Positions 5,017 to 64,000 of a stretch of 64,000 bases of DNA are shown in pieces; the first letter of the stretch is position 1; every line of letters begins with the position of its first letter. The stretch spans positions 248,001 through 312,000 of the forward strand of contig OY253684.1 of the NCBI GenBank assembly GCA_958009085.1, given 5' to 3'. This DNA comes from Protoeuglena noctilucae. Lineage: Eukaryota. The notes below the pieces were generated by a model, which saw only the letters and a program-made list of their open reading frames with translations, searched no databases and was not told the origin of the DNA. The translations under genes were made by a program, and so were the position numbers.

Positions 5017-8000
5017 TCACTGCCTCGGGTTGAACATGCGCTGGATGGCCTCGGGCTCGTAGTCCGTCTCAGCCAAGCTGGCGATGCGGGCGCTGGCCCG
5101 CACAGCTGCCCTACGTGAGGGCCGGAGGGCAGCCGGGCTGCGGGCAGAGGGTGGCGCCATCACAGCGGGCATTCGCCGGCAACGAGCAGAGGACGGGACA
5201 GCTCTGCAAGGGTAACTCGCCTGGCCTCCGGGGACGGCTGCGGGCCCCTCGTCAGGACCCTCTTGGCTCTCCGCCCCTGGGTCGCCACCGGTGCCGCGGT
5301 TCCCTGCGCATCCCCTCCTCCCTCATCGTTCTCTTGCACGGTCTCTGGAGCAGCGGACTTGCCACGACGCCCGCGCGCCCCCGCTGCGGCCGGCAGAGGC
5401 ATGGCCGCAGCCACGCTGACCTCCGCCTCCCGCCCCTGCACCTCCGCGGCCTGCGCCCGTGCCGTCCTCGTCCGTGTCCCAGCCGCCGCCTGCGCCTTCC
5501 GGTCCAGCGCGCTCAGAGCGCGGAGCTGGTTGCGCGCGTCGGAGCGCAGCGATCGGCGCGGGTTGGCCAGGAGAGCCTGCGACCCTCTCTCGTCCCCCGA
5601 CCCCGCCCGCTCCTCGTTGCCATCATCCCTTTCACTTGCGTCCTTCTCTTGATCAGCCCCAACCGACTCCTGCGGGCTGGCCTCCTCCGACTCGCTGGAT
5701 TTGGCAGCGGCAGCCCGCCCTCGCCCCCTGCCCCGCCCTTGCCCCCTCCCACGCCCTCGGCCCCTTCCCCGTCCCCTTCCCCGTCCCCGCCCCGCCGGCA
5801 CTCTGTCCGACATTTCCGCGTCCGTCTCGGAGTCCGAGTCGTCCGAATCAGACTCGGTCTTGTCGAGGGTGGTGTCAGAGGCGCCACGCCCTGACGTGGA
5901 CGGCACGCCCAAGCCGTCCGCCTCGCCTGCCTGCCTTCCATCGCCCGGGACCCCACATCCCGCCTCCATTTGCTGCGCCGGTGACGCCACTGTCCCCTGT
6001 CGGCCCCCCTTCGAGGCCAGGGCGCTACGGGCCACATCCAGCTCGGCGGCGATTGCGTCGCGTTGCGCGATCGCCTCCATCAAGGTCGCCTCCCGCGCCT
6101 GCAACATGACCCTCTGCAGCTCGTTCTGCTCCTTCAGCTCTTTCATCTGCTCCCTCAGCTTCTCCGACACCTTCCGCTCCTCCTCCACTTGCTCTTGCAG
6201 CCGCAACACCTGCCAGAGGGGTGCTGGGGCAGACGTCATAGTGCAGCCTCGCGCCCACGCTGGCCCCGCACCAAAGTGACCGCGACGTTAGCCCTCGACA
6301 AGCCAGATGGGCATGCCGGGGCGACTTGGCAGCTGTCCGCCCCCCCCTCACCGCAGGCAGCCCAGCTTCGTCCCGGCCCACAGACGCCCACATCTCGTCG
6401 GTCGCGTCGCAGGTGCGGGGGAGCTGCTCTGCAGTCGCGCCCACGGTAGGCGCGCGAGATCCGGAGCCCGGTCCGCAGGTCCCTGTGGCGCCTGGGCTCG
6501 CACGCGACCTGCAGTGGCAGCGAGCGGTGCAAGGATGCCCACCCGCACGTCGACGGGGGCAAGAAGGCCCCAGCGGGGCAGAGCCGAGAACCGCTTCACC
6601 TCAAGAACTGCAGCTCGTCCTGCAGATCCGCAATGAGCTCCCGTGCCTCCGCCAACTCCCTCTGAAGCGCCTGGACGGCGACAGGCGGGAGCCTGCAGGG
6701 CACGGGATTGCACGTGAATACGCCGCTGACAAGATGATGATTCCGAACACCCAGACAGTCCCCGTGACCCCGCCGCCCTCGCCTCTCCCCCTGCCGCGTG
6801 CGCCTCTGTCGCCCGCCGTTGGGCTTCTCGCTCGTGCCCTCCCCATCCCGCCCCACGCCCAAATCCACTCCCAGATCGTCCTCCAGCTCACGCAAGCGGC
6901 GCTCTGCGAGACGCAGAGGCGTTCAGTCTTCTCTACGCTCCCAGTTGTGCACTGCCACAGGCAGTCAGTTCCACCGATTTGTCCAGAGCCCTGGCTGCCT
7001 CACCCAGCCGCGCCTCGTACTCGTTTTCCATGTTCTCCAGCACCTCCCGCATCTCGTCCGCGACGCGACCCCGCACCTCAGCCTCGGCAGATGCCAGGTC
7101 GCGCTCCAGGGCCACCACCCGCTCCTGCAGCGGGCACGGGGCAAACTGTGACAGCCGCGGGCGGTGGCAAAAGCGCCAACGGCATGTTCTAGCACGCGCC
7201 GCCGCCCCTCGCCTGCAGGGCCCGGTTCTCCAAGTGCAGGTCCCCGCACTCCTCCTGCGCCGCCCGCAGCTGGTCACGCAGGTCGGCCTCGGCCACGCCT
7301 GCGTCCGCGTCCGTCGGAGCCGCGCGCTTCCGGCGCTCCCCCGCGCCTCGCCGGCTCGCCACCACCGCCTTGGCCACCGTGCAGCTCCCCTCCACTCTCC
7401 GTCGCTTGGTTGGCGGCTCCTCCTCTGGTGGCGGCTCCGGTGACCCCGCCTGTGGCACGGCAGGAGGCGACTCGTTGCAGCGACGACACGGCGCACGCGT
7501 CGCGCAGCTTTTCACCTCTCGCATCGGCCCTCACCAGCGTGGCTGCCATGTTGATCTTGCTGGCCAGCGCCGCGTACTTGAGCACGTGGGACGTCTCGTC
7601 GTACTCGGCGGGATGCGGGGACACACACGTGACAAGGGTGACGCGCCCCCACCCGTGGAGTACGTCTCGAAACAGGCGCGTGATCTTGGACTCCCTGCGG
7701 ACGGAGAGCGGCGGGCCTGGAGCTGCTCACAAGTTGGATGCCGCAGCGACTGCGCCACTGGGAAGCACGAGCGCCTGGAGACACGGACAGGCCGCGTGAG
7801 CTCACCGGTAGGGTATCATCACGGCTTGGCGGCGGTCTTTGTCCTTGCCAGCGTTCTGGCTCGCCCGCAGCGCCTGGAGGCAGCGCCCCAGCGTCATGAG
7901 CGACGAGTTGATGCTGATGGCCTCCTGCAGCCGCGTTCCCCTCGTCTGCGCCCTGCAGTCCACCCCAGGGAACAAAGCACGATCGCTGCGCACGCCTAGC

Positions 8001-9313
8001 GGCCGTGACGCTTCTCCAGCCCAGGCATGCACCCGTCCCAGCCCCGCGCACCGCGCGACACGCTCTGATCCCGCCAGGTCCACGAAGCTGAGCTTGCTGA
8101 GGCGCGCGCCGCCCGCGTCCACGAGCGTCACGGTGAAGACCGAGTGCGAGCGCGACGACTGGTAATTGAGCGCCGTCTCTGCCTTCCGTCGGCTGGCGCC
8201 CCCCTGCTGCACCACCCTCCGCGCCTGCTGCGGTGTGGTCACGTCGACCTCCGTCAGCCCCTGCACGTACACCCGGCCCTCCTTGTCCTCCTTCAACCTG
8301 CAAAGGCAACGAGCGTCTTGGCAGTGCCTCGGTTGGCGGCCAAATGACGCTGTGATGCCCCGGACCTATGAGCAACCCACGCACTTGAGCCTGGAAGGGA
8401 GGCCGTCTGCGTCCCGGCCCTTGGACAACAAGTCATACAGCTGGTCGTTGTACACCTCGTAGTTGGACACCACCACGCGCAGTCCCTGCTTGCTCTTCTC
8501 CATGGCCACCTGTGGGGGCAGGGGCCGGGGCGTCGGGGCAACCTGCGGCAGACGCAGAGGGTGCAGCGGGGTCAGACTCGGCGCGACGGCACTCACAGCG
8601 ATGAGGTCGAAGATGCGCTGCAGGGCGCGGGGCAGGATCCCCGGGGCTGCGTCGGTGCCCTCCACGGTGAAGGTCTTGCCGCTGGCCGTGACGCCGTACG
8701 CGAAGAGGACGAAGTGCCGGCCGCTGTGGGAGACGAAGTCGTCTATCAAGGGCCGGGCCGTCAAGTCAAAGAAGTCACCCTGCCCCACCTGCAGCGAGCG
8801 AGTGCGGCACAGCGTCGCAGCCGGGTTCATACGCCCGGCCCCGCAGTCGTTGGGCCACACAGGGCAGCGATCGTCACCTCTGACCCGCAGACGCAGGAGA
8901 AGTTGTGCTGGCTGCTGCGCTCGCCAGCCCTGTACCCGAGGGACGTCTCGGGGGCACGCATGGAGACTGGGGGACGGCGCAGGGGCAATGTATTGCTTGT
9001 CGGCATCCGAGGTCCAGAACATTCGTACATCACCCTGACCATGGCGCTGCTCACCGGTCTTGCTGTCCAGCGCCTCGATGCACGATGATGACGCCGTGTC
9101 GGGGAGGGGCCGGATGCGAAGCACCACCTGCCAGACCACGCGAAACAGTGGTTCGCGCGATGCATGCTCGACGACGCCCAGTGCACTGCGCGGGCCACGA
9201 CTCGCCTGCATCCTCTGAAGCTCAACCTCGCTCGATTCCCGCGCTCCCGCGACGGCCCGCGCCTGGCTCTGAGGGGCTCCACGCCGGCCCTGCCGACTCT
9301 TCGCATTCGACAT
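5017..9313 (-). CDS. Kinesin-6 family (MKLP/KIF20-KIF23-like) motor with coiled coil and low-complexity tail; multi-exon
   Basis: VVLRIRP, P-loop [70 protein letters not shown] and YDETSHVLKYAALASKI. The last exon (...AIQRMFNPRQ*) is reached via a GC-AG intron at 5111-5220. Confidence 0.88.
5712..5795 (-). repeat. Coding (GR)n dipeptide repeat in the kinesin-6 tail
   Basis: Translation [26 protein letters not shown] in ORF 5160..6239. Confidence 0.8.
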
Positions 9314-10362
9314 CGCTTCCCTTTTGGCTTTCCGAGGAGGCCCAGTGCGCCCCGGGGAGCGGAGGACATGGCCTGCAGGCGGGCAGAAGGCACGATTTGA
9401 GGACCCCTGGCGCTGGGACCAGAGGCGCTGAATTCGCGCTTGACACGGCAACATTGGTTTCCAGCGCAGATCGTACCATCGGCTGCATCCTCGAGCGGGC
9501 CCAGCTCTGATTCCGCGCTGTCCTTGCGAACGGCCCGCTTCGCCTCTGGGGTGAACTCCAAGATCCTGGGGCAGCAGAAGGGCGGTCGCTTGCAGCCACG
9601 CTGACAAACACACGCGATCTCGAGCGGATGCAAGGCCCGCTGGTCGACATCTCACCGCGGCCTCAGCTCGGATAGACGGCCCATTGGGCTAACACCGTCG
9701 ACGGGCACGTCCATGGCGACCCAACCAGGCCGCGGACCGCGCACGCGACGATGCCCCTCGTGATTGGGACGATCGGATGTCCTCGGAGATCAATGCGTCG
9801 CCCTCTCTCGGCGCACCGGGGGCCCCGTGCGTTCAAACCTGTGCGCATGCAACAACCTCGCCGTCCGGCCCCCATACGCCTGTTATTGTCGACCAAAAGG
9901 GCACATCGGCATTTCCAAAACGAAGTGGATGAGTGGGGGGGGGGTGCCGCCTGCTGGGACGCGCGGGATAGCCGGCATTTGCACTGGCTCACCTGAGAGG
10001 ATGACAGCGACGAGCGCCGAGGTGCCGGAAGCTAGCCGCAGCCCTCCCTTCGCAGGCATGATTGCGAGCAGAGTCCGTGGAGGATGGTTTCGGCAGCGGT
10101 CGCCGGGTCGGCGCCAGGCAGCTGGCGTGTCAGGAACACCTGCCCCAAAACGCGCGATGGCTGATGGCTGGCGCTATCCTGGGGCTAGCAACAGAAACAG
10201 GAAAGGAACAGCTCTCGTAAACACGCAATTGCAGCCGCAAGCGTCGAGAGGAAGGGAGCGTGCGACTTTGGCAGCCTTGCCGGCCGGCAGAAGCTGCACA
10301 ACAGGACTCTCAACACAGCGCGCGGGGAGGCGTGGTGACGAAAGCCATCTTACTTAGGAGGG

Positions 10363-14310: not shown

Positions 14311-17300
14311 ATGGACGTCCAGGACTCGATCGTAGTCGGCGGGCTGCGAGAATGTCATCGGGGAGTGCGGGGGGCGACATTCGCGCTGTTTTCGACTCCT
14401 GCGTGGTTCTGTGCGCGTCGCCGCAGGGCTGCTTCGTCGGCTGCCGAAACGGACGACAGCTTCAAGTCTATGGGGGGTCTTTTTCACCCCGCCCTCTCGC
14501 CTCGCCCGGTCTGGGGCGCTCGGCAGGTCCCGCCGGGGCTGCCCCGGCTCGACTTGGCGACCGTGATGCGGAAGAACGCCAAGGAGCCAGAGACGAGCGA
14601 CGACAAGAGGGGTGAGGCTGGCAGAAAGAAAGCCTGTGCAGCATCGCTGGCAGCGGTCTCGAAGATGGACGCGCGCAAGCGAGCGCTTCCCCGTGCTCCC
14701 ACCGCAGCTCCGGCGCCCAGGATCGAGGCACAGCACGCGAGCGCAGAGGCGCGCGCGTTGTCGCGTGTCTTGCAGGAGGCCCGGTCGCGCCCTCGGGGGG
14801 GGGCGGATGTGCCCACGCGGCAGCAGCGCGGCCGGAGCGTCGAGGGCGCGCCACGGTCACGGCCAGGCGCACTGCCGCAGGGGCAGACGTGGAAGGTCCT
14901 GGACCCCGTGGTGGCGGGCACACGCTCCGTGTCGCAGCAGCCCTCAGGGGGCAGCATGGGGCGTTTTGCCCCACCGCCGGCCACGAGTGGGGACACGGGC
15001 GTGGCGATTGCGGGTAGCAACGCAGCCAGGAGTGTCGGCCACGGCCACAACCGGGTGCGTGGCCTTCTGGAAACCATCGCTTTTTGGATATTTCGCGAGC
15101 AGTGCACAAAGCCCCCGCGCTTGTGTGGCGCACAATGCCATCCCTCAACGGCTGGTCTCGCAGGACTCGTCTTCCCCTGGCGCTCCGGCCAGCAATCACG
15201 CAGCAAATCGGTCCCCATTCGCTCATCGAGTGTCAAGCACGCACGGCAAGCCCAGCCCTGGCACCCTCAAGTCTGGAGGAGGCTACGCCAGGTGGGGTGG
15301 TGGCAACAGATGCTGTCCTGTCGATGCCCCCCTAGCCTGCACCATGAGACTAGTGTTTACCGGGCGTTAGTGTAGTACGACTAGCGCCCCTGCCTCTTCA
15401 CTCGGTCCAGCCCCTGCTCGCAGTCGACGGTCGAGCGCTTCGCTGGCCATGGCTGATCGGGACCAGCATGCGACGATCGTGCATCAGCAGGCAGGGACCC
15501 GCTGGCATTCGTCATCCGGTGAGGAAGGGGGCCACGTGTGACGACTGCTGCTCCGGGATCCATCCTCGCGCTCAACACTCGCTGTTGCCGTCCCGTGCAG
15601 TTGCTGATGAGAGGAGCCCCGCCCGGAGGATTGGCGGTTCGTACGCGGCGAAGATGGCGTCGGCGTCCCAGAGTCCCGAGCCGGCGGCCCCACGGAGCCC
15701 TGCAAGCGTGGACGATGGCGGCCGAGGGGAGGGGCAGGTGCTAGGGATGGTGGGAGGGGAGAAGTCCACGGAAGGGACGCAAGGAGGCAGTGGAGGGGGG
15801 TGGTCCTTCACGGTGGCCGAGGCGCCCGTGACCCCGACGCTCGGTCCGCGCAGCGACGACGGTGCCGCACCCACGGTGGGCGCCGTGGCAAGAGCCGACG
15901 GGGGGTGGCACACCGAGCCCAGCGAAGCGGACGCTGCAGCTGAAGCAGCGGACGGCAAGGAGGCCGAGGCGCGTGGCAGCATTCAGGAAGCAAGCCGAGA
16001 AGGAGGGGCTGACGGTGTCACGGAGGGCGAGGGGCGCGGGGCCGTGGGAGAGGGTTCTTTGGGGACAGGGGCCTCCGTGCCAGAGGGCGTTGTTGGCGTT
16101 CCCATCGAAAGCCAGCGCTCGGAGGGTCAAGGCGCGATGGGGGAGGGGGAGGGGCAGGGGTCGGGCCACGCTCCTGGGTGGGACAGTACGCCAGGCACGC
16201 CGAGGGACATGCACCGGTCGATGCAAGAGATGCCCGACGCTGGCGTTGCGTCTGCGGCGCAAATGAGAGACGCCATCGCAGAGGGCCGGGAGTCCGCCAC
16301 GTCGAGCGTGGAGGCGCGGAAGACAGCGGTTGCGGACCCCGGTTCTGCAGCCAGTGTGCTTCCGTTGCCCGACGCTCACATCAGCGGTCATGTAGCGGGT
16401 CCTGTGTTTGGGGAGCCCACGCGCGTGCCCGTTAACGGCGGCGTCGGGCAGATGGGGGCGGGGGCTGCTTCTACGACAGAGTTTGCGACGGGGCAAGTGG
16501 GCGAGGTGGAGGGGAGTGGTCAGCCCGGGCGAGTACAGAGCTCATCTGTGGCAGAGCAGGCCAAGGTTGCAGGGCCCTCTGTGGCCTCGTGGTTCGGCTC
16601 TCTCTTAGGGAGACAGGGCTGGGGTCCGTACATGAGGGGGGTGTCTGACAATGGGCAGCCTGCTCTCGCAGCCAGCCCGGAGGGAGGGACTGCAAGCCCG
16701 AGCACCCCACCTCTGCCGTCGGCTGCGTCGCCTGTGCCCTCGCAAGAGCGGTCTCCGTTCTTGGAAGTCCCAGAGGAGCAGAGCACCATGAGTGCTCTTG
16801 TGGCGCAGCAGGACCATCCCCGGCGTCCGTCCGTGAATCGCTGGCACGTCGGCAGCGCAAGCTCGTCATCGAGCAGCGCGTCCCTCGTCTCGGCAGTCTC
16901 TGGTGGGCGGGCGGGATCAGCCGCCCGTCCTCGCCGGTCCTCTCGCATTCCAAGCCCAGGCCCAGCACCCCGCGGGGGGGAGTCGCCTGAGCGCTGGGCG
17001 GCCGGCCGGGAGTCTCGCTTGCGTCACCCTGGAGTCATCACTCCTCTCCGGTTTCGCGCGCTGCGTGACGCTGACCGCGCCCGGGACCCTAGGGGCAACC
17101 AGGGGCGCAATTCGCCGATGCGCAGGGCAGCACTCCAGCTAGACTCCGAGCTGCAGGCTCTCTTGGGTCCCGGGACGGTTTTGCAGGAGGCGCCGCGGGC
17201 TCGCAGCGCCTCTCAGGGGCGCCGTCGCTCGCGTCGGAGATTGCATGGCGAGGGTGAGGAAGACCTCCCAGCGGCATCGCCGCAAGCTTTGCCTACCGTC

Positions 17301-20300
17301 AAGGATTCGCCTGTACAAGCGCCTCCGCCCCCAATGCTGGACGCGGGGGAGCCGGGGCTCGTAGCTGTTGCAGCTCGCGTGCGGCCCCTTTTGCCCGTGG
17401 AGCGGGGTAGAGGGGCCCTGGAGGTCGTATCGACCGGCACGACCCCCGGCGACGCCTTTGTGCTTTGCGGGGAGGGCCACGGGCGGATGTACCGTTTTCC
17501 AGCCGTATTTGGCCCTCGCTCGACCCAGCGAGAAGTCTACGACCGTGCAGTGGCGGGCGCCGTGGCCAAGTGTGCCGAGGGTTTCACCTGCACCGTGGTG
17601 GCATACGGTCAGACGGGATCGGGTAAGACGTTTACGATGGGGACAGGGCCCGAGCTCTTTGACGGGTGGAGAGACGCAGCGGAGACGGGGCTGCGACCCG
17701 AGACGGTGCCCGAGTCTTGCGGGGTGCTTCCACGTGCGCTGGCGCAGCTGTTTGCACACATAAGGGCCAACCGCGCGCGGGGGGTGGCGACGCGAGCACA
17801 GTGCCGCTTTGTCGAGATTTACAACGAGGAGATTCGGGACTTGCTGGACCCACGCTCTCTAGAACAGCAGGCGAGGTGGGGTGCTCGAGGGCACGCAGCG
17901 GGCCTGTCGCTCAAGGATCAGCCGGACGGGTCGGTGGCCGTCGTGGGCTGCTCCACGATCGAGGTCCACACGGCTGAGGAGGCGCTGCGGGTATTTGCAG
18001 CGGGCATCCGGCACCGCACCACGGGCCAGACGGCAGTCAACGACCGTTCCTCGCGCTCCCACGCGCTCCTCTCCATCCTTCTCGAGAGTCTCGACGCTTC
18101 GGGCGCCACGATTCTTTCTGCTCTCCACTTGGTCGACCTTGCGGGAAGCGAGCGGAACAAGGCAACAGACATCACCGACATCCGGCTCAAGGAGGCTGTG
18201 TCGATCAACCAAGGGCTGCTAGCTCTGGGCAACGTCATCTCTGCGCTCTCTGACCAGGGACAAGGCGACCGCGGTACGCGCCAACGCCACATTCCCTACC
18301 GGTGAGCATAGGCTGCAAACTGCTCTCTCAAGAGCATGCGCGCAAGTCTTGTCAATCAGTTGCAAAGTGAGTACTCTTCGCCCTCTGTGTGCAGTGACAG
18401 CAAGCTGACTCGCCTCCTGCGCGAGGCGCTGGGGGGCAACTCCTACACGGTGATGCTCTGCTGCGTGTCGTCAGCGGACGTGGCGTTACACGAGACGCAG
18501 AACACGCTGAAGTACGCGACGCGGGCCAGCACCGTCCAGAACCACGTTTCGCGCGTAATCCTTCGGCCAGGGGCCGTGGCCCCTGAGCGCGCTGCCCAGA
18601 TGCGCTCACTGCAGCAGTTCCTCGACAACGCCGATGATCTGGGGGCGTCTGTGCCGGACCTCACTGGCTTCGGCAACGACGTGCTCTGGTCGATGCTTCG
18701 CAAACTCCGGCTTGTCGCGCACCGTCATCGGGAGCGGGCAGACGCCGAGGGTCGTCGTGCGGCGGTGGTCGAGGAAGAGCGACGAGAGCTCGAGGCACAG
18801 ATTGAGCGCGAGCGCACGCGGGTTGCCCGCCTTGCGCGGGCAATGTCCGTCCGAAGGGCATCTACAGGTGTCAAGGTAACACGGCCCAACTGAGCGCATG
18901 GGTTTGGCGTCGCTGGCTTCTCTGGGCTTGCAGGGAGTGCTTTTACTCTACGTTCCCTTACCCTTGCAGGACACGTCCTCCTCTCCTGAACATGCGGTGC
19001 GTCTTGGCGCCCTGAAGCAACGCCGGCTGGAGCAGCAGCAGGCCAGGGCGAGGGAACGACAGGGTGACGAGGATTCCTCCGCATCTCCGGACCAAGCTGC
19101 CCAGAGTCGATCGGTGGCGGGCTTCCCGCCACCCTCGCTTTCGGCAGCCTCGCCTCTTGAGGAGGCAGAAGCACTGGTGGAGAGGCTCGAGGTGGCCGTG
19201 ACAAATGGCAGTCTCCCTGAGGAAGCCCGTGCCTCTCTTGGACAGCGCCTCCTCCACGTGATGATGTCGGGGCTCTCCCCTGACTTGAAGTCCGTTCCCG
19301 ACGCGCGTTTCGAGTCCGCAGCGTTGGGCCACCCGGCACCTGGGCGAAGCTCGGCTGTCGTGCCCACGGGGATCTTTGGCCGTGTGTCGAGTGTGCTTGG
19401 CGTGGGTGCCTGGCAGGTTCCTATGCCATCAGACCAGGAGTTGGCAAGCGTCACTGCCCGTAGCACTCACGCCAGCTCGCAAGAGACTCCGTGGCACACA
19501 GGAGCGAACGCCTCCCCTGTGACGCCTGCGGCCCTTGACGCCTTTCGGACACCGCTCTTCGGACACCGCTCGGACACCGCTTCGGGAGCTGAGCTGCCGA
19601 CTGTCTTCGGGGGACGTGAGACTGGTGCCGTGGCGGAGCGGAGCAGCGCAGATGAGCAGGCAGATCACATGACATCCGCAAGGGCGCGCCGTGAGCGACA
19701 GGAGCTAATGGATCTCGACCGGCAGATCGCGGAGGCCGAGGCGGAGCTGGATGCGGCGATGCAGCAGGGGGAACACGATTTGGCTGCGCTGGATGCTGGG
19801 CAAGTGAGTCTCACCGTTGGCAAATGCTCCCGCTTCTAGGTGCTTCCTCGTGAACTGACCTTGACGTCTTCGTCATCTTCCCCTTGCCTGCAGCTACTGC
19901 CGCTCGCAGCTCGTCTTCAGGAGACCCTGGAGGCACGCAACTTGCACCGGGCCCTGTCCAAGCACGGTGGAGCATCGCTGTCAGCGCATCCGCTCCATTG
20001 GGGGGCGGAAAAGTCTCCGCCTCAGACCTCAATGCCGGATCCCCGAGGTTCATCACCGGCCGGCGACGCGGAAGGCCACGAGGAGGGCCACGAGGAGGCG
20101 TCAATGATGGGCCAAGAGGGCGCGTCCCGTCCAGCCTCGGCGCTGAGACGCCGAGAAGCCCTCTCCCTGCTTCGAGCGACTTCTTTGCGGCGCTCGGTGC
20201 AAAGCCGTCAGCAGCGAGGGTACGCCTCTGCCTCTGCCCCGTCGGATGGCGCCAAGAACTCCAGCGAGAAACGGGAGATGGGACTGGGCAACCGGAGTTT

Positions 20301-31464: not shown

Positions 31465-33125
31465 ATGCCCGCCCGTGTCACCCGGTTCGGCATCGCGATC
31501 CCCGGCCCGGGTGCCGCGGCCGCTCTGTGCTTGGAATACGTTGAGAATGGGAAAGAACGCGTTCGTGTGGTGAGCTCACTCACCACGGGGCGCTGCAAGA
31601 CCTCCTCCGGCTGCGGTTTGCAAGTGAAAGGGACCAACGGACGCGCAATCCTCCCTTTTCAGGTCAAACTATCCGTAAAGGACATCGGGCTGGAGACGGG
31701 CGCACTCGTGGAGCCTGTGAGCAACCGCGCCCGTGGAGCCGCTTGCAGATTTCAATGTCGTGCGCTTTCATGGCTGTTTTATGTGTGATTGTCGATGGCG
31801 GGCCCTGCGGCCCCTTCCGCGCCTCGCGGCGGGCGACTGTGAGCGCAGCGTGCATTTAAAGTTTGCGCTGCGCTGATGCGCCCGCGCTCCTCCGCCGCAG
31901 ACCCTCCGAGCGCTTCCTTCGTCCGTCGACCTGAGCAGCATCAGCCAATCCCAGGTATCCGCCCTCCTCGCCCGTCTGGCTGCCCTCCACGAGGATGGGA
32001 CTGCCGTGCCGGAGGCCAGCGCGCCTCCGCCGGTGGACGACGAGGTCCTCAGCCTATCTGGAGACCGGCTGGGAGAAGTGGATGACGCGGAGGTCGACGC
32101 CTACGTCATCCAGGCGAGCAGGGGACCTTGTCGTGCGTGGTGACGACCATGCCCAACCTGCCCTGTCTTGAGACGCTCGAGCCTGCATGTTCAGGGAGAC
32201 CGCGACCTGAACAAGGTGACGGACCATGAGCTCGCCGTGGCCAAGGCCAAGATGGACGCCGAGTTCCTCCGGAAGCGCGTCACGCCGGGGGACACGGGCT
32301 TCGTGTACGACAGGCGTGTGGACTTCGAGCCCGTCGCATCCGATGCGGGGTCCTGGGAGTCCTCATTCGATGGCGAGCCGCGGGGACGGGGGACGGCAAC
32401 GGCACCAAGGGAGGGTGGCAAGGCAGAGGGCGTGGCTGCAGCGGGGGGTGTCGGCAGCCAGTCGGGGGGAGCGAGATCGCCGGCCGGCGCTGTCGGAGTG
32501 GTGCCGGAGAGCAGGGGTGGCCCTGAGCGCGAGGGCCCCGCGTCTGTCCCAGTGCCGCGCCCCCTGCCCGCGGTCCCTGCGACTGCGAGCGCCGCGGGGG
32601 CGGTGGGGGACGAGAGCTTTGAGCTGGACGAGTCCGTGGAGGAGGCGAGCATGTCAGCCGAGAGCACGGGACGAAGGGCAGCCGCTGCGCCGGGTGCGGG
32701 GGCCCCGGGGGTGCCCGCCGGGGGCGCCAGGGAGGCGGGCATGACGGCCGCGGACTTTGGGATCGAGGATGACATGGCAATCCGCGGGGGCGACAGCCTG
32801 GACGACCTGGACGACTACGACGAGGACTTTGACGGGGGCGAGGGCGACCGGATCGGGGTGGAGATGCTGCCTGGGAACGACTTCGGGGTGGACGAGCTGG
32901 ACGAGCTGCCGGATCTGCCAGGCACGTGGAGCAAGCTGCGAGTCCCGCATGCTGCCCTCGATGCATCCACGGGCGCTGCGCCCGCCCTCCCTCCGCATCA
33001 GCCGCCGCAAGGCTGTCTCACGAGCGACCTCTCCGCCTCCCCGTCCTGCTGCAGATGAGTACGAGGAGCGCTTGGACAGCGACATCGGCATGTCGTCGCT
33101 GGAGAGGTGGGAGCGAAACATCTGA
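31465..33125 (+). CDS. CEP19: Centrosomal/basal-body protein CEP19 homologue with acidic tail; multi-exon
   Basis: N-terminus RFGIAIPG...ALCLEYVENGKERVR; the C-terminal block DLNKVTDHELAVAKAKMDAEFLRKRVTPGDTGFVYDRRVDF matches the CEP19 signature (DLNKL...MD..F......D..FVYD). Confidence 0.75.
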
Positions 33126-52964: not shown

Positions 52965-55222
52965 ATGCTTCCCACGAGGCGTGCCCACCACACTCGAGGC
53001 CTTTGCGCACTTATCGACCTCAATAGGCCCATTTTGGCATCCGCGGCAGCCTTTCGCGTGGGACAGTGTACGCTGGATGGGAGGAGCGGCGCGGCAACGT
53101 CCTTCCTGCTCCCTCCCGCAGGCCCTCGGGGATCGCTCCTCGCCACGGCGTGGTCGTCTCGGCAGCGTCCAACCTGATGGTGGGTGCCCCGCGTTACCCG
53201 TTCGAAGCACGCATCATCGCGCGATGGATCGCGGCGACCCACCGACGCCCCGGGCTCGCCCGTTGCCGCAGAAGCAGGCTGCAGGGCGCCTTGACATCTC
53301 CCAGACGCCTGAGTGGGAGGCGCTGCAGGAGCACGTCAAGGAGATCGAGAAGACGCATCTTCGGGACCTGATGCAGGAGCACGACCGCGTGGAGTCGCTC
53401 ATCGTGGAGCACAACGGCCTCTACTGCGACTTCTCCCGCCAGAGGCGAGGGCCCTGCGCTCGCCGCGACCTCCGGACGCCCGCCGCGCGCTGGGTCGATG
53501 CCAGGTCGCCTAACGTCGACCGTTCGGCCCCGTCTCTCCGCGCAGGGTGACCCAGGAGACGGTGTCGAAGCTGATCGACCTGGCGGACGCGGCGCAGCTG
53601 CGGGAGAAGATCGACGCCATGTTTGACGGGGAGCACATCAACGCCACGGAGGACCGCGCGGTGCTGCACGTGGCGACGCGGGCGATGCGGGACGAGGTGA
53701 TCAAGGTGGAGGGCGAGAACGTGGTGCCCCAGGTGTGGGAGGTGCTCGACAAGATCAAGGTCTTCACGGAGAAGGTCCGCGGCGGCGAGTGGCGGGGCGT
53801 GACGGGCAAGCCCCTCAAGAACGTGGTGGCGATCGGCATCGGCGGCTCCTTCCTCGGGCCCCTGTTCGTGCACACGGCCCTGCGGACGGACCAGAAGGCG
53901 GCCATCAACGCGCACGGCCGGAGCCTGCGCTTCCTGGCCAACGTGGACCCCATCGACGTGGCCCGGGCCCTCAACGGGTTAGACGCGGAGGAGACGCTCT
54001 TCGTGGTCATCTCCAAGACCTTCACGACGGCCGAGACGATGCTCAACGCGCGCACGGCGCGCGCTTGGCTCGTGAGCGAGCTGGGCACCGAGCAGGCGGT
54101 GGCCAAGCACATGGTGGCCGTGTCCACCAACCTCAAGCTGGTCAAGGAGTTCGGCATCAACCCCGAGAACGCGTTTGGGTTCTGGGACTGGGTGGGCGGC
54201 CGGTACTCGGTGTGCTCGGCCGTGGGCATGCTGCCCCTGTCGCTCCAGTACGGCTTCGACACCATGCTGGAGTTCCTCCGGGGCGCCAACGACATCGACC
54301 GCCACTTCCGCACCGCGCCCTTCGAGTCCAACCTCCCCGTCATGATGGGCCTCCTCTCCGTCTGGAACGTCTCCTTCCTTGGCCACCCCGCCCGCGCCAT
54401 CCTCCCCTACTGCCAGGCGCTGGCCAAGCTCCCCGCGCACATCCAGCAGGTCTCAATGGAGTCCAACGGCAAGGGCGTCGACATCCACGGACGCCGGCTG
54501 CCCTTCGAGGCCGGCGAGATCGACTTCGGCGAGCCCGGCACCAACGGCCAGCACTCGTTCTACCAGCTCATCCACCAGGGCCGCGTCATCCCCTGCGACT
54601 TCATCGGGGTCGTCAAGTCCCAGCAGAGCGTCTACCTCAAGAACGAGGTCGTCTCCAACCACGACGAGCTCATGTGCAACTTCTTCGCCCAGGCCGACGC
54701 CCTCGCCTTCGGCAAGACGGCCATCGAGCTCCGGGCCGAGAACGTCCCCGAGTCCCTCGTACCCCACAAGACCTTCACGGGCAACCGCCCCAGCCTCTCC
54801 CTGGTGAGCCGCGTCCCTGCCGCACCGCCCCTGCTAGGCGCACTTCCTTCCTGTCACGCAATCTCTGCTTGCCCCGTCCTCGCCCGCAGCTCCTTCCCGA
54901 GCTCAACGCCTTCACGACGGGTCAGCTGCTGGCGCTGTACGAGCACCGCGTGGCCACGCAGGGCTTCATCTGGGGCCTCAACTCCTTCGATCAGTGGGGC
55001 GTGGAGCTGGGCAAGGTGCTGGCGTCGTCCGTCCGCTCGACCATCAACCGCTGCCGCACGATGAACAAGCGCGTGGCGCCCTCGGACGGCTTCAACTACT
55101 CCACGGCCAAGATGATCAACCGGTACCTCGAGGGCAAGACGCAGATCCTCTACCCGGAGGGCCACGACGTCTTCCCCAAGGAGCTCATTCGGGGGACCCA
55201 GCGGCCGACCTCGTACCCCTGA
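52965..55222 (+). CDS. PGI: Glucose-6-phosphate isomerase (cytosolic-type sequence with N-terminal extension); 5' end uncertain; multi-exon
   Basis: [78 protein letters not shown] and [12 protein letters not shown]. Confidence 0.96.
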
Positions 55223-58661: not shown

Positions 58662-60731
58662 TCACTTGTCACCTGGCACCCACGTGTCCTCCGAGCCCAC
58701 GAGGGCGCACGCGGCGGCGTCCTGGTTGGGGATGAGGTGCCCCACGCAGTCGCGCTCCTTGGCGAGCTCATCCTCGGAGGCCTTGATCTGCAAAGAGGGT
58801 CGCGCGAGGGCGAGGCAGGTCACGTCACGCGGCGTCGAAGCACAGGCCAACCATGCGTCCTGTATCTCAAACACCAGCAACGGCTCCCTCGCCGCCGGTC
58901 GGCTTCGTCGCTGGGCCTGCCGCTCGCCTTGGCACGGAGGTAGTCGTCGATGACGATGTCCTTGACGAACTCCCACTGGCCGTTCTCGCCCATGCGCAGG
59001 GGGAAGGAGAAGATGAGGCCGTTGGCGACGCCGTAGGGGTTGCCGTCCGAGATGACGGCCGAGGAGAAGACGTCCCCGGGGGCCGTGGGGCGGATGAGGG
59101 CGCGGATGGCGTCGCAGATGGACACGGCCGTGGAGGCGGCGGACGAGCGGCCCCACTTCTTGATGAGGGCGCCGCCGCGCGTGGCGACCTTGGGCACGAA
59201 CTCGCTCTCGAGCCACTGGCGGTCAGAGATGACCTCGAGGGCCGGGCGCCCGCCGATCTTGGCGTTGACGAAGTCGGGCACCTGGGTCGTCGAGTGGTTG
59301 CCCCAGATGGCCGTGTTGGTGACTGCGAGGGGAGGCACGCGATGCGTCAGCGACCTCCCGCGCCCCACGACGGCGGCAGCCGGGCCTGGCTCGCGCGGCC
59401 GCCCCAGCCAGCGGCCGCGCCGCGCCACTCACCCGAGTTGTAGTGGCGCTGGGCCCTCATGGCCAGCTGGGCCTTGGCGCGGTTCTCGTCCAGGCGCGTG
59501 AGGGCGTGGAAGTTTTTGCGCGGGATGGACGGGGCGTTCTCCATGCAGATGAGCGCGTTGGTGTTGCACGGGTTGCCGACCACCAGCACCTGCACCGTCT
59601 TCTTCGCTACCTGCAGGGGTCTCGGACGCACCGCGGTCACTCTCTTGCGCCGCACGCAGGCGGCCTGGCAAGGGCACCCCACGGCGCTCACGCAAGCCGT
59701 TGACCCCATGTTGTGCCGGCCCCACCTGGTCCAGCGCCTTGCCCTGCTCGACGAAGATCTTGCCATTAATGTCGAGGAGGTCGGCGCGCTCCATGCCGGG
59801 GCCGCGGGGCTTAGCGCCGATCAGCAGCGCCCAGTCGGCGTCCTTGAAGATGATGAAGGGGTCGATGCCAATCTGCGGGGGTCGAAGCAGCGGTCGCAAC
59901 AGGTTAGACCAGGGCGCAGGGAAACGCTCGTGAAGCTGGGCTACGAGAGGGGGACGACTGGGCGGCGTCAGTGTACGAATACAACTTCTCATGAGCAGCG
60001 CCTGGGGCGCGCTTCTGAAGGTGTCCTAAGATTTCTTGTCTTCCCCCGCCGCCCAATGCGTCCCCCGCACCGCCACTGCCATCGCCGCAGCGCCGGTAGG
60101 GTCGGGCACGGCCAGTCCCGCAACAACCATCAAGCTCGGCCACTGCCATGCCCTTGTCGCCACGGCCCTCACCTGCACCTCCCGAAGCAGGGGGTACATG
60201 GAGTCCTCCAGCTCCATGCACACGCCCTCGAGGGCCTCCCGGGACCGCTCGGAACCGAGGAGCTGGAGGATGATGGGCTGGTCGTTCCCAAACACCTCCC
60301 CCGAGCAGAGCTGGAAGAGCAAGTGGTTGGCGATCTGCCCCGCCGCGCCCGACACGGCCACGCGGATGGGCTTCTTCCAGCCCTTCATCTTCTCCGCGTC
60401 CACGTCCGAGATGCTGTACTTGACGTCCCACAGGCCCTCGCGGGACTCGACCGCCACGGCCACCGTCACGTCCCGGGCGCGCCGCGCCAGCCTGAGCGGG
60501 ACGGCGCGGGCCACGGGAGCGGCGGGAACCACACGCGAGGACGGGCACGTCCCCGCCCCTGCAACGGCGGAGAGGAGGGGGCACTTGCTTCCGCAGAGCG
60601 AGGAGGGCAACGGGGCTGGCCCGCGCTACGCTCGCCCTCCCTCCACCCACGCGGCTGCCGAAAGACGCATGGGAAACGAACGTAAGTGTCGAAGCTGTGC
60701 GCGCGACAGATGGCACAACCGAGGCGCGCAT
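58662..60731 (-). CDS. Chloroplast NADP-dependent malate dehydrogenase; multi-exon
   Basis: Transit peptide; [88 protein letters not shown] and a C-terminal extension ERDCVGHL...AAACALV. Confidence 0.95.
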
Positions 60732-61336
60732 CGGCCAGCTAGAACTGGCCAACCTCCTCCCGCCCCGATGGTGGCGGGACAGGGCCGCGAGGACGCCCCG
60801 GGGTGGACCACCGAACGCATGACGCAGGCACTGCGCGGGGGAGCGGCGGGCAGGGCAAAGGAGCGCCTTTTCGGCCAGTCATGACAAATGGCGCTCTCGG
60901 GGGGGAAAGCGGGCACGCTGCACGGTCTCTGGGCCGTCCAGCGACGTTTTCGCGATAAAGAGAGATCGGCTGGCACCGCTGGCTGCCCCGGAAGCCTCGA
61001 GGGCGGCGGGGGCAGCGTGCGCGACGCGCTGATTCGACATCCGGGATACGCCCACGGAATTCGCGCGGTATCGAGCGGAAACGGTAAGCCCGACGCGGGC
61101 GACTCACTCAGCGCGCTGTGCACGCGGGCCACGGTCGCCATGGGCCTCCGAGCTTGATCCAGAGCCGAGGGACGGCAAGAGCGGCTGTCGACACGCGCCA
61201 AGCTCAGGGGAGACCGGGAACACTTCGTAGCAGTTCTGGAGCGCGTGCAAGCGGCGTGGGCGAGCATCAGCGAGTCGTCAGAGGGACGTCAGAACCTAGC
61301 ATCGCACACCCCCGGCAACCGGCCCAGCGGGGCGGT

Positions 61337-64000
61337 CTAGAACAACACCAAGGTAGTGGAGTCATGCTTCCTCTTGCTGGACCGATCCCTCCATGCGGCA
61401 ATCCACGCCTTCGCCTCCTCGCGGTTCTGCTCGGGCGTCGTCGTGCAGATGATGGGCTCGACGCGGTTGACGGGCATAAGCAGCCCGTACTCCGACAACG
61501 ACCCGCCCTTGGGGGAGCTCGCGGAGGGTGCCTTGCCGCTCCTGGACCGCCACGCCTGGATCCAGGCCTTAGCCTCGGCGCGGTTCTGGGCAGGGGGCTT
61601 GGTGCTGCGAGCAGCGCGTGACTCTCAGCCTCAGCGAAGACGAGGGTCCATCCAAGCGCTTCACGCTGCCCGCACAAAGCAAGGCGGCCCTCACTTGACG
61701 ATGGGCTCGATACGGTTCTTGGGCATGGGCACACCGTACTCGGACCGCTGCTCGCCGCCCCCAAACAGCGACGAGAAGGGGTTGTTGTAAGCCGGTGCCT
61801 TCGGCGCCTCCTTGGGAGGGGCCGCAGGGGCCGCAGGGGCCGCGGGCGCGGCCTTGGCGGCAGGGGTCACAACAGGTGCAGCCTCAGCAGGCTTGGCAGC
61901 CGCCTTGGCCGGGGACCTTGCCCGCCATGCCTTGATCCACGCCTTGGCCTCCTCGCGGTTTTCTGCCGGGCTCTTGGTGCTGCAGGTGAAGAGAGCACAG
62001 GGGACCATTTCGTTGCCGCTGCGGGTGTTGCCCTGCTGACAAGCAACATTTGCATGAGCACTGGACATGTCGGCATCAGACAGCGGAAGGCAGCTGTGAA
62101 CCAAAACAGATCCCCCCGGCCCGCCTCCTCACTTGACGATGGGCTCCACGCGGTTCTTGGGCATCGGCACGCCGTACTCGGACCGCTGCTCGCCACCTCC
62201 AAAGAGCGACGAGAAGGGGTTGCTGTTGGCCTGCGCCTTGGGCTCCTCCTTAGGCTTGGCCGCGACAGAGGCCGCGGCGGGCTTGGCAGCGGGAGTCGTG
62301 GCGGGTGCGGCCGCGGCAGGCTTGGCGGCAGGTGCCGCAGCAGGGGCAGCCGCCGCGGCAGGCTTGGCGGCGGCCTCGGCCGGCGACCTTGCCCTCCATG
62401 CCTTGATCCATGCCTTAGCCTCCTCGCGGTTCTCCGCCGGGCTCTTGGTGCTGCGGGCACAACACGCGACGTCCCATGCGACCACCGCCCCGCGGCAGCT
62501 AGCGCACCGCACAACACCCGCCATGGGAGGCTCACTTGACGATGGGCTCCACGCGGTTCTTGGGCATCGGCACGCCGTACTCGGACAGGTCCTGGCTGCT
62601 GGTGGCCCCGCCCACCATGCCCCCGAAGAGCGCCGCGAAGGGGTTGGACGGCTTGGCCGACGCCGAAGCCGCCGCCTTGGCCTTCCGGGCCTCCTCCTCG
62701 GCCGCGGCTTTCGCCGCCGCCACTTTCGCCGCCACCTCCGCCTTGGCCTGCTCCTCCGCCTTGGCCGCCGCCTCCCGCTTCGCCAGGTCCTCCGCCGCCG
62801 CCTTGGCAACGGCCGCGCGGGCCTCCGCCTCCTTCTTCGCCTGAGCATCCGCCGCCGCGCGAGCCTCGGCCTCCCGCTTGGCCTGGGCCTCAGCAGCTGC
62901 CTTAGCCTTGGCCTCGGCCTCCTTCTTCGCCTGAGCCTCTGCAGCCGCCTTGGCCTCAGCCTCTTTCTTGGCAGCCGCCTCCGCAGCAGCCTTGGCCTCG
63001 GCTTCCTTCTTGGCCTGGGCCTCAGCCTGCCTCTTGGCCTCCGCTGCCGCCTTCGCCTCAGCCTCCTTGGCCCTAGCCTCCGCAGCCGCCTTGGCCTCGG
63101 CAGCAGCCTTGGCCTCAGCCTGCTTCTTGGCCTCCGCCGCAGCCTTGACTTCCGCCTCCCTCTTCGCCTTCGCCTCCGCAGCTGCCTTGGCCTCGGCTTC
63201 CTTCTTGGCCCTCGCCTCCGCTTCCCGCCTCTGCCGCTCCTCCGCCGCCTTGGCCCGCGCCGCCGCCTTGGGGTCCACCGGGACCTCAGCAGCCTCCTCC
63301 ACCTCCTCAGGCTGCTTGGCCTTGGACCCCAGCAGCCCAGCGAAGATCCCCGGCACAGCCGGCGCCTTGGCCGCAGCCACCGGCACCTCCACCTCCTCCT
63401 CCTCCTCCTCCTCCTCCTCCACCGCGGCCTGCTTGGCCTTGGGGACCAGGCCGGCGAACAGACCCGGGAGCGCGGGCCCCTTCGCCTCCTTGGTCTCCTT
63501 GGCCGGCGCCTCGGACGCCGCCGTCGACGCCCGCACCGACCCCTTGGCCCTCGCCGCCTGCTTCCGGGCCTCCTCCGCGGCGCGCTGGGCCTCGGCCGCC
63601 TTCTGTGCCGCAATCTCCTCCTTGGTCGGGGCGTTGATCACCTCGTCCACCACCCTGCGCTTCTCGCTGTCGGAGAGGATGCGCCCCTCGCGCGCCGCCC
63701 TCTGCACCTCCTGCAGCAGCACGCGCGCCGCCTGCTCCCGACGCTCCAGCTTGGCCACCGCCGCCTCCAGCTGCTGCACCTTGGACTGCACGTGACCAGG
63801 CAGGGAAGGGCTTTACCGCCCCGTCGCACGCCAGCCTATGGGAGTTCCCCGCTGCTCCTCCCAATGCATGACAGCAGGTTCGCCGAATGCCCAGAGCAAG
63901 AGAGGCAGGCTCATTGAACCGGCCCAGTCCCCTGGCTCACCTCAGCCTGCTGCACAGCGGCAAACTGCGGGGCTGCCTCCTTCCGCAGAGCCGTCTCCTC
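61337..64000 (-). CDS. Uncharacterised Ala/Glu/Lys-rich protein with four C-terminal SEYG.MP.NR.EPI...N..EAKAWI.AWR repeats (5'-partial; continues beyond the window)
   Basis: Exons 64000-63941, 63785-62536, 62450-62133, 61979-61695 and 61604-61337 join in frame through GT-AG introns; stop TAG at 61339-61337. Confidence 0.85.
62690..63280 (-). repeat. Coding low-complexity (EAEAKAAAEAxAKK)n helical repeat
   Basis: Translation EAEARAKKEAEAKAAAEAKAKREAEVKAAAEAKKQAEAKAAAE... continues for about 200 residues. Confidence 0.85.

Follow-up and report, generated by a model that had tools for sequence, protein, structure and literature searches.

The window analysed in this work, a stretch of 64,000 nucleotides from Protoeuglena noctilucae (NCBI GenBank assembly GCA_958009085.1, contig OY253684.1, positions 248,001 to 312,000 of the forward strand), is eukaryotic and has a G+C content of 66.5%. 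Towards its end, on the minus strand, lies a gene for a repeat protein, whose spliced frame reaches over 726 uninterrupted codons from the edge of the window to a TAG at 61337-61339 and carries in its C-terminal part four copies of a 36-residue module, by which the protein may hold ferredoxin-NADP+ reductase (FNR). The transcript evidence comes from Logan contigs of the runs X1, X3, and X4, which are labelled as marine metatranscriptomes, belong all to one study, and contain ~0.72 of the sampled words. Two splice joints (61604->61695 and 63785->63941) were found in the RNA-labelled contigs of these three runs, and neither of them in the contigs of the DNA-type run X8. Loose ends of RNA contigs at 61979, 62133, 62450, and 62536 fit two further introns, although owing to the repeats such ends are ambiguous between module copies; all four introns are GT..AG on the minus strand. 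The initial annotation covered 61337..62660; the gene is longer, since the RNA contigs extend ~1.2 kb upstream, past base 64000, which places its 5' end beyond the window. The 726 in-window codons are the C-terminal part of a spliced, RNA-supported nuclear gene, laid out from its upstream to its downstream end as follows.

63941..64000, minus strand: 60 bases at the end of a coding exon that lies upstream (RNA joint 63941->63785 in three runs; open frame)
63786..63940, minus strand: intron of 155 nt, GT..AG (joint in X1, X3, and X4, absent from X8)
62536..63785, minus strand: large exon with the N-terminal half of module 1 (spliced translation)
63666-63782, minus strand: conserved, predicted helical stretch in the large exon, inside a 51-residue match (41% identical) to residues 428-478 of the metagenome protein P0005
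within 62536..63785, minus strand: acidic run, two PG[LI]FAGL motifs, and the first NPFxxLFGG (translation, motif search)
62661-63278, minus strand: A/E/K-rich, probably helical spacer of ~205 residues, residues 190-395 (composition)
62536-62585 and 62393-62450, minus strand: module 1
62451..62535, minus strand: intron of 85 nt, GT..AG, phase 2, in module 1 (loose RNA-contig ends at 62450 and 62536)
62133..62450, minus strand: exon with the helix half of module 1, a 70-residue A/P/K-rich spacer containing NPFSSLFGG, and the N-terminal half of module 2
62133-62182 and 61922-61979, minus strand: module 2
61980..62132, minus strand: intron of 153 nt, GT..AG, in module 2, placed at the same codon (loose ends at 61979 and 62133)
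61695..61979, minus strand: exon with the helix half of module 2, a 59-residue spacer containing NPFSSLFGG, and the N-terminal half of module 3
61695-61744 and 61547-61604, minus strand: module 3
61605..61694, minus strand: intron of 90 nt, GT..AG, in module 3, placed at the same codon (joint in X1, X3, and X4)
61337..61604, minus strand: last coding exon, with the helix half of module 3, a 17-residue spacer, module 4, a short basic tail, and the TAG
61388-61495, minus strand: module 4, intron-less
61107..61336, minus strand: 3' untranslated region, which continues into exon 1 of the malate dehydrogenase gene next to it (RNA contigs)

The four modules occupy residues 421-456, 527-562, 622-657, and 675-710 of the in-window frame. 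They are the four C-terminal modules of ~36 residues that had been described in the initial annotation as appearing after splicing; the sequences agree, and the splicing has now RNA support. In modules 1, 2, and 3 a phase-2 intron is inserted at one and the same Asn codon, right after ..EPIV. The spacers between modules measure 70, 59, and 17 residues and are A/P/K-rich, as the proposed sticker-and-spacer layout had it, and both translation and motif search reproduce the NPF[AS][AS]LFGG reported just before the first three modules. At the DNA level two repeat families, D7 (four copies, 67–94% identical to the reference copy) and D8 (four copies, 66–76%), cover together the two halves of the module. 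A hidden Markov model built from 20 modules, one of them module 4 of the window itself, recovered exactly four N-terminal and four C-terminal halves among the 1381 six-frame open reading frames (ORFs) of the window, all of them in the repeat gene, the next best ORF having E = 0.24. The short motif PG[LI]FAGL / NPF[AS][AS]LFGG is present in five copies on the minus strand (63438-63467, 63324-63353, 62619-62648, 62195-62224, and 61757-61786), three of which directly precede a module, and similar [LI]FxGL motifs are seen in P0005. The three module introns have no clear likeness beyond their splice sites, while the adjoining parts of the exons are 86–94% identical in DNA, and these diverged introns beside similar exons suggest selection or an exon-limited gene conversion.

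In each module, a helix of ~20 residues comes after an extended segment of conserved sequence (SEYGxPMPxNRVEPIV). AlphaFold2, run with the alignment of 20 modules, predicted an extended N-terminal half and a helix at residues 23-42 of a 44-residue module, at an average pLDDT (predicted local distance difference test) of 89.2 and a block pLDDT of 96 over the helix; a Foldseek comparison of this model with the PDB gave no match at E <= 0.001 (best E = 6.3). The helices had been announced as amphipathic, which is only modestly true, their Eisenberg hydrophobic moment being 0.18–0.27 with a negative mean hydrophobicity. The C-terminal part of the protein is basic, with an isoelectric point (pI) of 10.05, and the ~205-residue A/E/K-rich stretch that precedes the modules would form, by its composition, a long helical rod.

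Pfam holds no model for the module, in agreement with the initial annotation, in which no named family was recognised, and the four exon ORFs gave in Pfam only sub-threshold matches (e.g., RMF with 16.8 bits, the cut-off being 27.9) that we treated as chance. A word-index search with the 95-residue ORF found nothing among longer proteins, and the ESM Atlas returned no usable match. The module is nevertheless not an orphan, as it is found in 27 representative metagenome proteins: a HMMER search of 1.84 billion representative proteins, with the last 88 residues as the query, yielded 22 matches at E <= 0.001, including the window's own 53-residue fragment, and a profile of 20 modules added five. 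All 27 have, whole or one half of it, the consensus SEYG[LVI]xMPxxRVEPIVS..T..EN[RK]x[ES]AxxW[IV]xx[WY][RK], with S3, Y5, G6, R13, P16, A30, and W33 as its invariant positions and N26 conserved at 90% or more.

Pfam information was available for 23 of the 27 carriers of the module, five of which have a domain; four of these (P0003, P0005, P0019, and P0047) are Rossmann proteins that bind NAD(P), and the fifth one is MraY (P0018, with an N-terminal module; NCBIfam equivalog at 193.6 bits, just over the cut-off of 192.05). The chlorophyll a/b-binding domain was found in none of the 23. Both P0003 and P0019 combine NmrA/NAD_binding_10 and CIA30 domains with one or two C-terminal modules, a layout that is presumably that of the plant protein HCF173, and in P0047 the helix half of the module stands at the N-terminus, ahead of an NmrA/NAD_binding_10/Epimerase domain. 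NCBIfam had no specific family for P0005, P0003, P0019, P0047, P0020, P0006, or P0045, and gave only weak generic matches to short-chain dehydrogenases/reductases, for P0047 and P0003. A hydrophobic 19-mer resembling a membrane anchor is present in 11 of the 27 carriers. Four of the carriers (P0009, P0010, P0012, and P0045) have an acid-free, Ala/Arg/Ser/Thr-rich N-terminal presequence, then the module, and then a C-terminal hydrophobic segment, which is the layout that would be expected of a minimal anchor holding a stromal partner at a membrane. They make up a family of small proteins of 124–174 residues with a conserved tail ending in ..LPPPPEA[FY].P, for which neither Pfam nor NCBIfam has a model. 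In another carrier (P0049) the helix alone is present, three times, and would then be able to act as a separate unit. Judged from these varied carriers, the module is portable.

The only match to a protein of solved structure points to FNR. When the 88-residue C-terminal piece was compared with 177,635 distinct PDB sequences, E-values below 0.5 were obtained only for three forms of Lhca4 from Chlamydomonas (E = 0.14–0.41), and with the 20-module profile the three Lhca4 entries reached E = 0.002–0.009, with the next match at E >= 3. The matched stretch is the mature N-terminus of Lhca4, that is, the 23-residue peptide SAVPENVKEAREWIDAWKSKSGG, which in synthetic form is reported to bind FNR with N = 1.07 and a dissociation constant (KD) of ~126 nM, a charge-swapped control peptide binding only weakly (10.64898/2026.04.07.716946). 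According to the part of that preprint, of April 2026, accessible to us, the N-terminal stretch of Lhca4 is absent from all maps of the photosystem I–light-harvesting complex I (PSI-LHCI), a diffuse FNR-dependent density is seen above Lhca4, AlphaFold puts the helix into a cleft of FNR, and conserved helices of this kind are found in Lhca proteins of some Chlorophyceae only, with a motif distinct from that of Tic62/TROL (10.64898/2026.04.07.716946). The ortholog search of the preprint, in the same accessible part, was built on Lhca4 alignments (10.64898/2026.04.07.716946), so that carriers other than light-harvesting proteins could not appear in it.

The likeness between the module helix and the Lhca4 peptide resides in a common core, E/Q-N-x-x-E-A-x-x-W-I-x-A-W-K/R-x-K/R-S, predicted as alpha-helical in both. 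The residues N26, A30, and W33, then I/V, W/Y, and R/K, are all found in the Lhca4 peptide at the same spacing, and the positions at which the modules differ from Lhca4 are also variable within the module family. In several carriers the module stands right after a presequence, as the helix does in Lhca4, and the helix-only copies of P0049 could act as a unit in the same manner. On the other hand, in Chlamydomonas reinhardtii an antenna protein, Lhca4, has the helix once, at its mature N-terminus, whereas the window protein is not a light-harvesting one and has four copies, internal or C-terminal; a conserved extended segment of 16–17 residues precedes each module helix and has none to match it in Lhca4; and the modules have fewer acidic residues. 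The conserved face of the module helix (N, A, W, I/V, W/Y, R/K) is that of the FNR-binding Lhca4 helix, and on this basis we propose that each module docks one FNR.

The carrier P0005 (1143 residues) gives an idea of what lies upstream of the window. It has a NAD_binding_10 domain, then a charged helical region, and then two C-terminal modules, and directly after its NAD(P)-binding domain a stretch of 51 residues is 41% identical to the window protein, to which it is also alike in having similar [LI]FxGL motifs, a charged region of helical type, and modules at the C-terminus. P0005 looks like the full-length counterpart of the window gene. Its string ERPTDDHGSTH fits, at all but one position and if H is counted as aromatic, the group I motif of Tic62, E-R-P/A-T-D-X-Ar-K/G-E-T-H, as given in the accessible text of Balsera et al. 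(PMC1847441); against the PDB sequences P0005 had no match at E <= 0.001. The ~1.2 kb of transcript upstream of the window leaves room for roughly 400 residues, as in P0005, and by this comparison the N-terminus of the window gene should be a Tic62-type NAD(P)-binding domain.

Taking all together, we give about an even chance to the explanation that the repeat protein is a Tic62-like scaffold docking up to four FNR, with a motif of algal type and an architecture that resembles that of vascular-plant Tic62. In such a scaffold, an N-terminal Tic62-type NAD(P)-binding domain would be followed by the long A/E/K-rich helical spacer and this by the four docking modules on flexible A/P/K-rich linkers; with one FNR docked per module, as many as four would be held near the pyridine-nucleotide-binding domain, in a protein probably located in the chloroplast. 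We infer here FNR binding, its stoichiometry, the plastid location, and the N-terminal domain of the window gene alike. By way of P0005, the scaffold would be comparable to Tic62 and TROL in having a pyridine-nucleotide-binding domain and then several C-terminal copies of a short docking motif, and the small membrane-anchored carriers P0009, P0010, P0012, and P0045 would parallel TROL as anchors. The motif itself is different, being helical and unrelated to the Ser/Pro-rich stretch S-P-Y-x2-Y-x-D/E-L-K-P2 by which plant Tic62 binds FNR, as described in the accessible text of PMC1847441, and a regular expression for this plant motif found no match in the 726 residues. In the same accessible text, the FNR-binding module of Tic62 is reported from vascular plants only, and no group I Tic62 was found in Ostreococcus or Chlamydomonas (PMC1847441).

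Several observations weigh against the FNR scaffold. The Lhca4 match is short, with about 9–10 identities in 19–20 positions and a modest E-value, the preprint behind it is not peer-reviewed, and its binding pose is an AlphaFold one (10.64898/2026.04.07.716946, in the part accessible). Compared with the Lhca4 peptide, the modules have a more basic character, and of the four acidic positions swapped in the control peptide of the preprint, modules 1, 2, and 4 have an acidic residue at only two and module 3 at only one. Lhca4 offers no counterpart to the half of the module that is conserved best (SEYG..PIV), and this half may for that reason serve another partner. MraY and several carriers without a domain have no obvious link to NADPH, and neither a Tic62-like N-terminal domain nor a transit peptide is part of the window sequence.

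Some of these points would suit an explanation in which the docking unit is real, the partner is another abundant protein of the stroma or the membrane surface (e.g., a stromal subunit of photosystem I, ferredoxin, or the ribosome), and the likeness to Lhca4 is convergent or partial. The half of the module with invariant S3, Y5, G6, R13, and P16 is the one that Lhca4 does not have, two of the four acidic positions linked to FNR in the accessible part of the preprint are not kept, and neither MraY nor the many carriers without Pfam domain point to NADPH. We regard another partner as rather unlikely, with the only solved-structure match being an FNR-binding peptide, the helix positions conserved in the family being those in common with this peptide, and four of the five domain-bearing carriers binding NAD(P). 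Improbable, to our judgement, is that the helices bind a membrane instead of a protein and build a structural scaffold at the surface of the thylakoid or the envelope. Each helix has Trp and basic residues, the helical spacer is long, and a tethering to thylakoids had been suggested in the initial annotation; the low hydrophobic moment (0.18–0.27) and the negative mean hydrophobicity argue, however, against a membrane-seeking amphipathic helix, the Lhca4 peptide is described in the accessible preprint text as soluble and FNR-binding (10.64898/2026.04.07.716946), and in the 11 of 27 carriers that have already a hydrophobic anchor segment, a membrane-binding helix would be redundant.

The initial annotation had put forward Rubisco as a possible partner. 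The four helices would in that case work as Rubisco stickers, either tethering the enzyme or cross-linking it so that a condensate forms, and we consider this very improbable. Its general description of the protein as a multivalent linker or tether is still the best one; what finds no support is the assignment to Rubisco and the pyrenoid, and a multivalent FNR tether is more likely than a Rubisco or pyrenoid linker. The sticker-and-spacer layout and the basic C-terminal part (pI 10.05) are what speaks for Rubisco, together with the use, according to the accessible parts of two sources, of the Chlamydomonas and Chlorella motifs likewise in a linker with several copies as well as on membrane or enzyme-domain proteins (PMC7673724; bioRxiv 10.64898/2026.07.17.739135), so that the distribution of the module is by itself compatible with Rubisco. 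The protein is indeed like the EPYC1/Rubisco-binding-motif proteins and like CsLinker, PMTT, RHOP, and PMST in placing repeated short helices on flexible spacers, and like the EPYC1 and CsLinker groups in the reuse of one motif on membrane and enzyme-domain proteins. It differs from them in the sequence of the motif (for CsLinker, by eye), in having a long helical rod and, as it seems, an enzyme-like N-terminal domain, and in its partner, which would be FNR instead of Rubisco. The Chlamydomonas Rubisco-binding motif, [D/N]W[R/K]XX[L/I/V/A] in the accessible part of PMC7673724, has no match in the 726 residues; the four WR dipeptides all have A at position -1 and S at +4. The key hydrophobic contacts of the CsLinker helix are Phe and Leu (PMC11570498, accessible part), and these fall by eye on E and A of the module. 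Compared by eye in the same way, the part of CsLinker that binds Rubisco, as given in the accessible text of bioRxiv 10.64898/2026.07.17.739135, is alike at the edges only and the helix has another length. More than half of the in-window protein is, moreover, a charged helical rod and not a disordered linker, the module helix matches the FNR-binding peptide of Lhca4, and the module is found also singly on NAD(P)-binding enzymes, on MraY, and on small anchors.

A broader possibility, which we hold more tentatively than an even chance would warrant, is that the whole module, SEYG segment and helix, serves prasinophyte-type green algae as a portable tag for FNR docking, wiring the NADPH-producing enzyme to a set of chloroplast proteins. 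The tagged set would include the Tic62-like protein with two to four copies, the NAD(P)-binding enzymes with a CIA30 insert, the NmrA-type reductase, MraY, and the minimal membrane anchors. If this is so, the partnership of Tic62 and FNR is older than land plants, or it arose twice with unrelated motifs, and the helix of Chlamydomonas Lhca4 is one trimmed-down case of a much wider system.

Searches were also made for FNR sequences. A metagenome scan with a degenerate FNR motif gave 10 loci, four of them cyanobacterial FNR and six longer flavoproteins, sulfite-reductase-like by eye, and a protein search with a cyanobacterial FNR fragment gave 1695 proteins at E <= 1e-20, with none algal-looking among the best 120 by checks of C-terminus and motif. 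The FNR search in the ESM Atlas found bacterial clusters only, and a family search for algal FNR reached only one actinobacterial genome.

Other features of the window were recorded as well. The next gene downstream of the repeat gene encodes a malate dehydrogenase (Pfam Ldh_1_N and Ldh_1_C; 58823-61142, minus strand), with its likely start codon ~195 nt past the stop of the repeat gene. The RNA contigs are unbroken over 61107-61604 and go then on into the malate dehydrogenase transcript, spanning both genes and skipping ~548 nt (roughly 60559-61106) as the first intron of the latter. We take this malate dehydrogenase to resemble the NADP-dependent chloroplast type. A phosphoglucose isomerase exon (53514-55061, plus strand) is 62–67% identical to genes of Planctomycetota metagenome-assembled genomes (MAGs) and to one contig labelled as a Klebsiella MAG, and ~50% identical to Actinomycetota genes, none of the best 80 loci being cyanobacterial. 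A CEP19-like domain and several exons of kinesin motors (32144-33055, plus strand; 7277-9688, minus strand; 15354-18890, plus strand) fit a flagellated alga.

How FNR is held at green-algal membranes is a long-standing question, for which the only published answer that we found is the Lhca4 preprint, dealing in its accessible part with antenna proteins only. No orthologues of the plant FNR tethers have been identified in Chlamydomonas according to the accessible text of PMC5683061, and our literature search, within the accessible text of the papers returned, found none on Tic62 and Micromonas that describes such a protein, nor any on an algal FNR tether of this kind. Already known, from the accessible part of the preprint, is the FNR-binding helix itself (10.64898/2026.04.07.716946); new here are the module in its extended form, the presence of several copies of it on a Tic62-like protein, and its distribution among enzymes and anchors. 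If true, the module would be a compact tag of ~40 residues to place FNR in engineered chloroplasts. Should the modules indeed bind FNR, marine picoalgae would possess a multivalent, Tic62-like scaffold for this enzyme and a family of tagged enzymes and anchors, and the partitioning of FNR, the localisation of the NADPH supply, and the evolution of the association between Tic62 and FNR would become directly testable with peptides and recombinant FNR.

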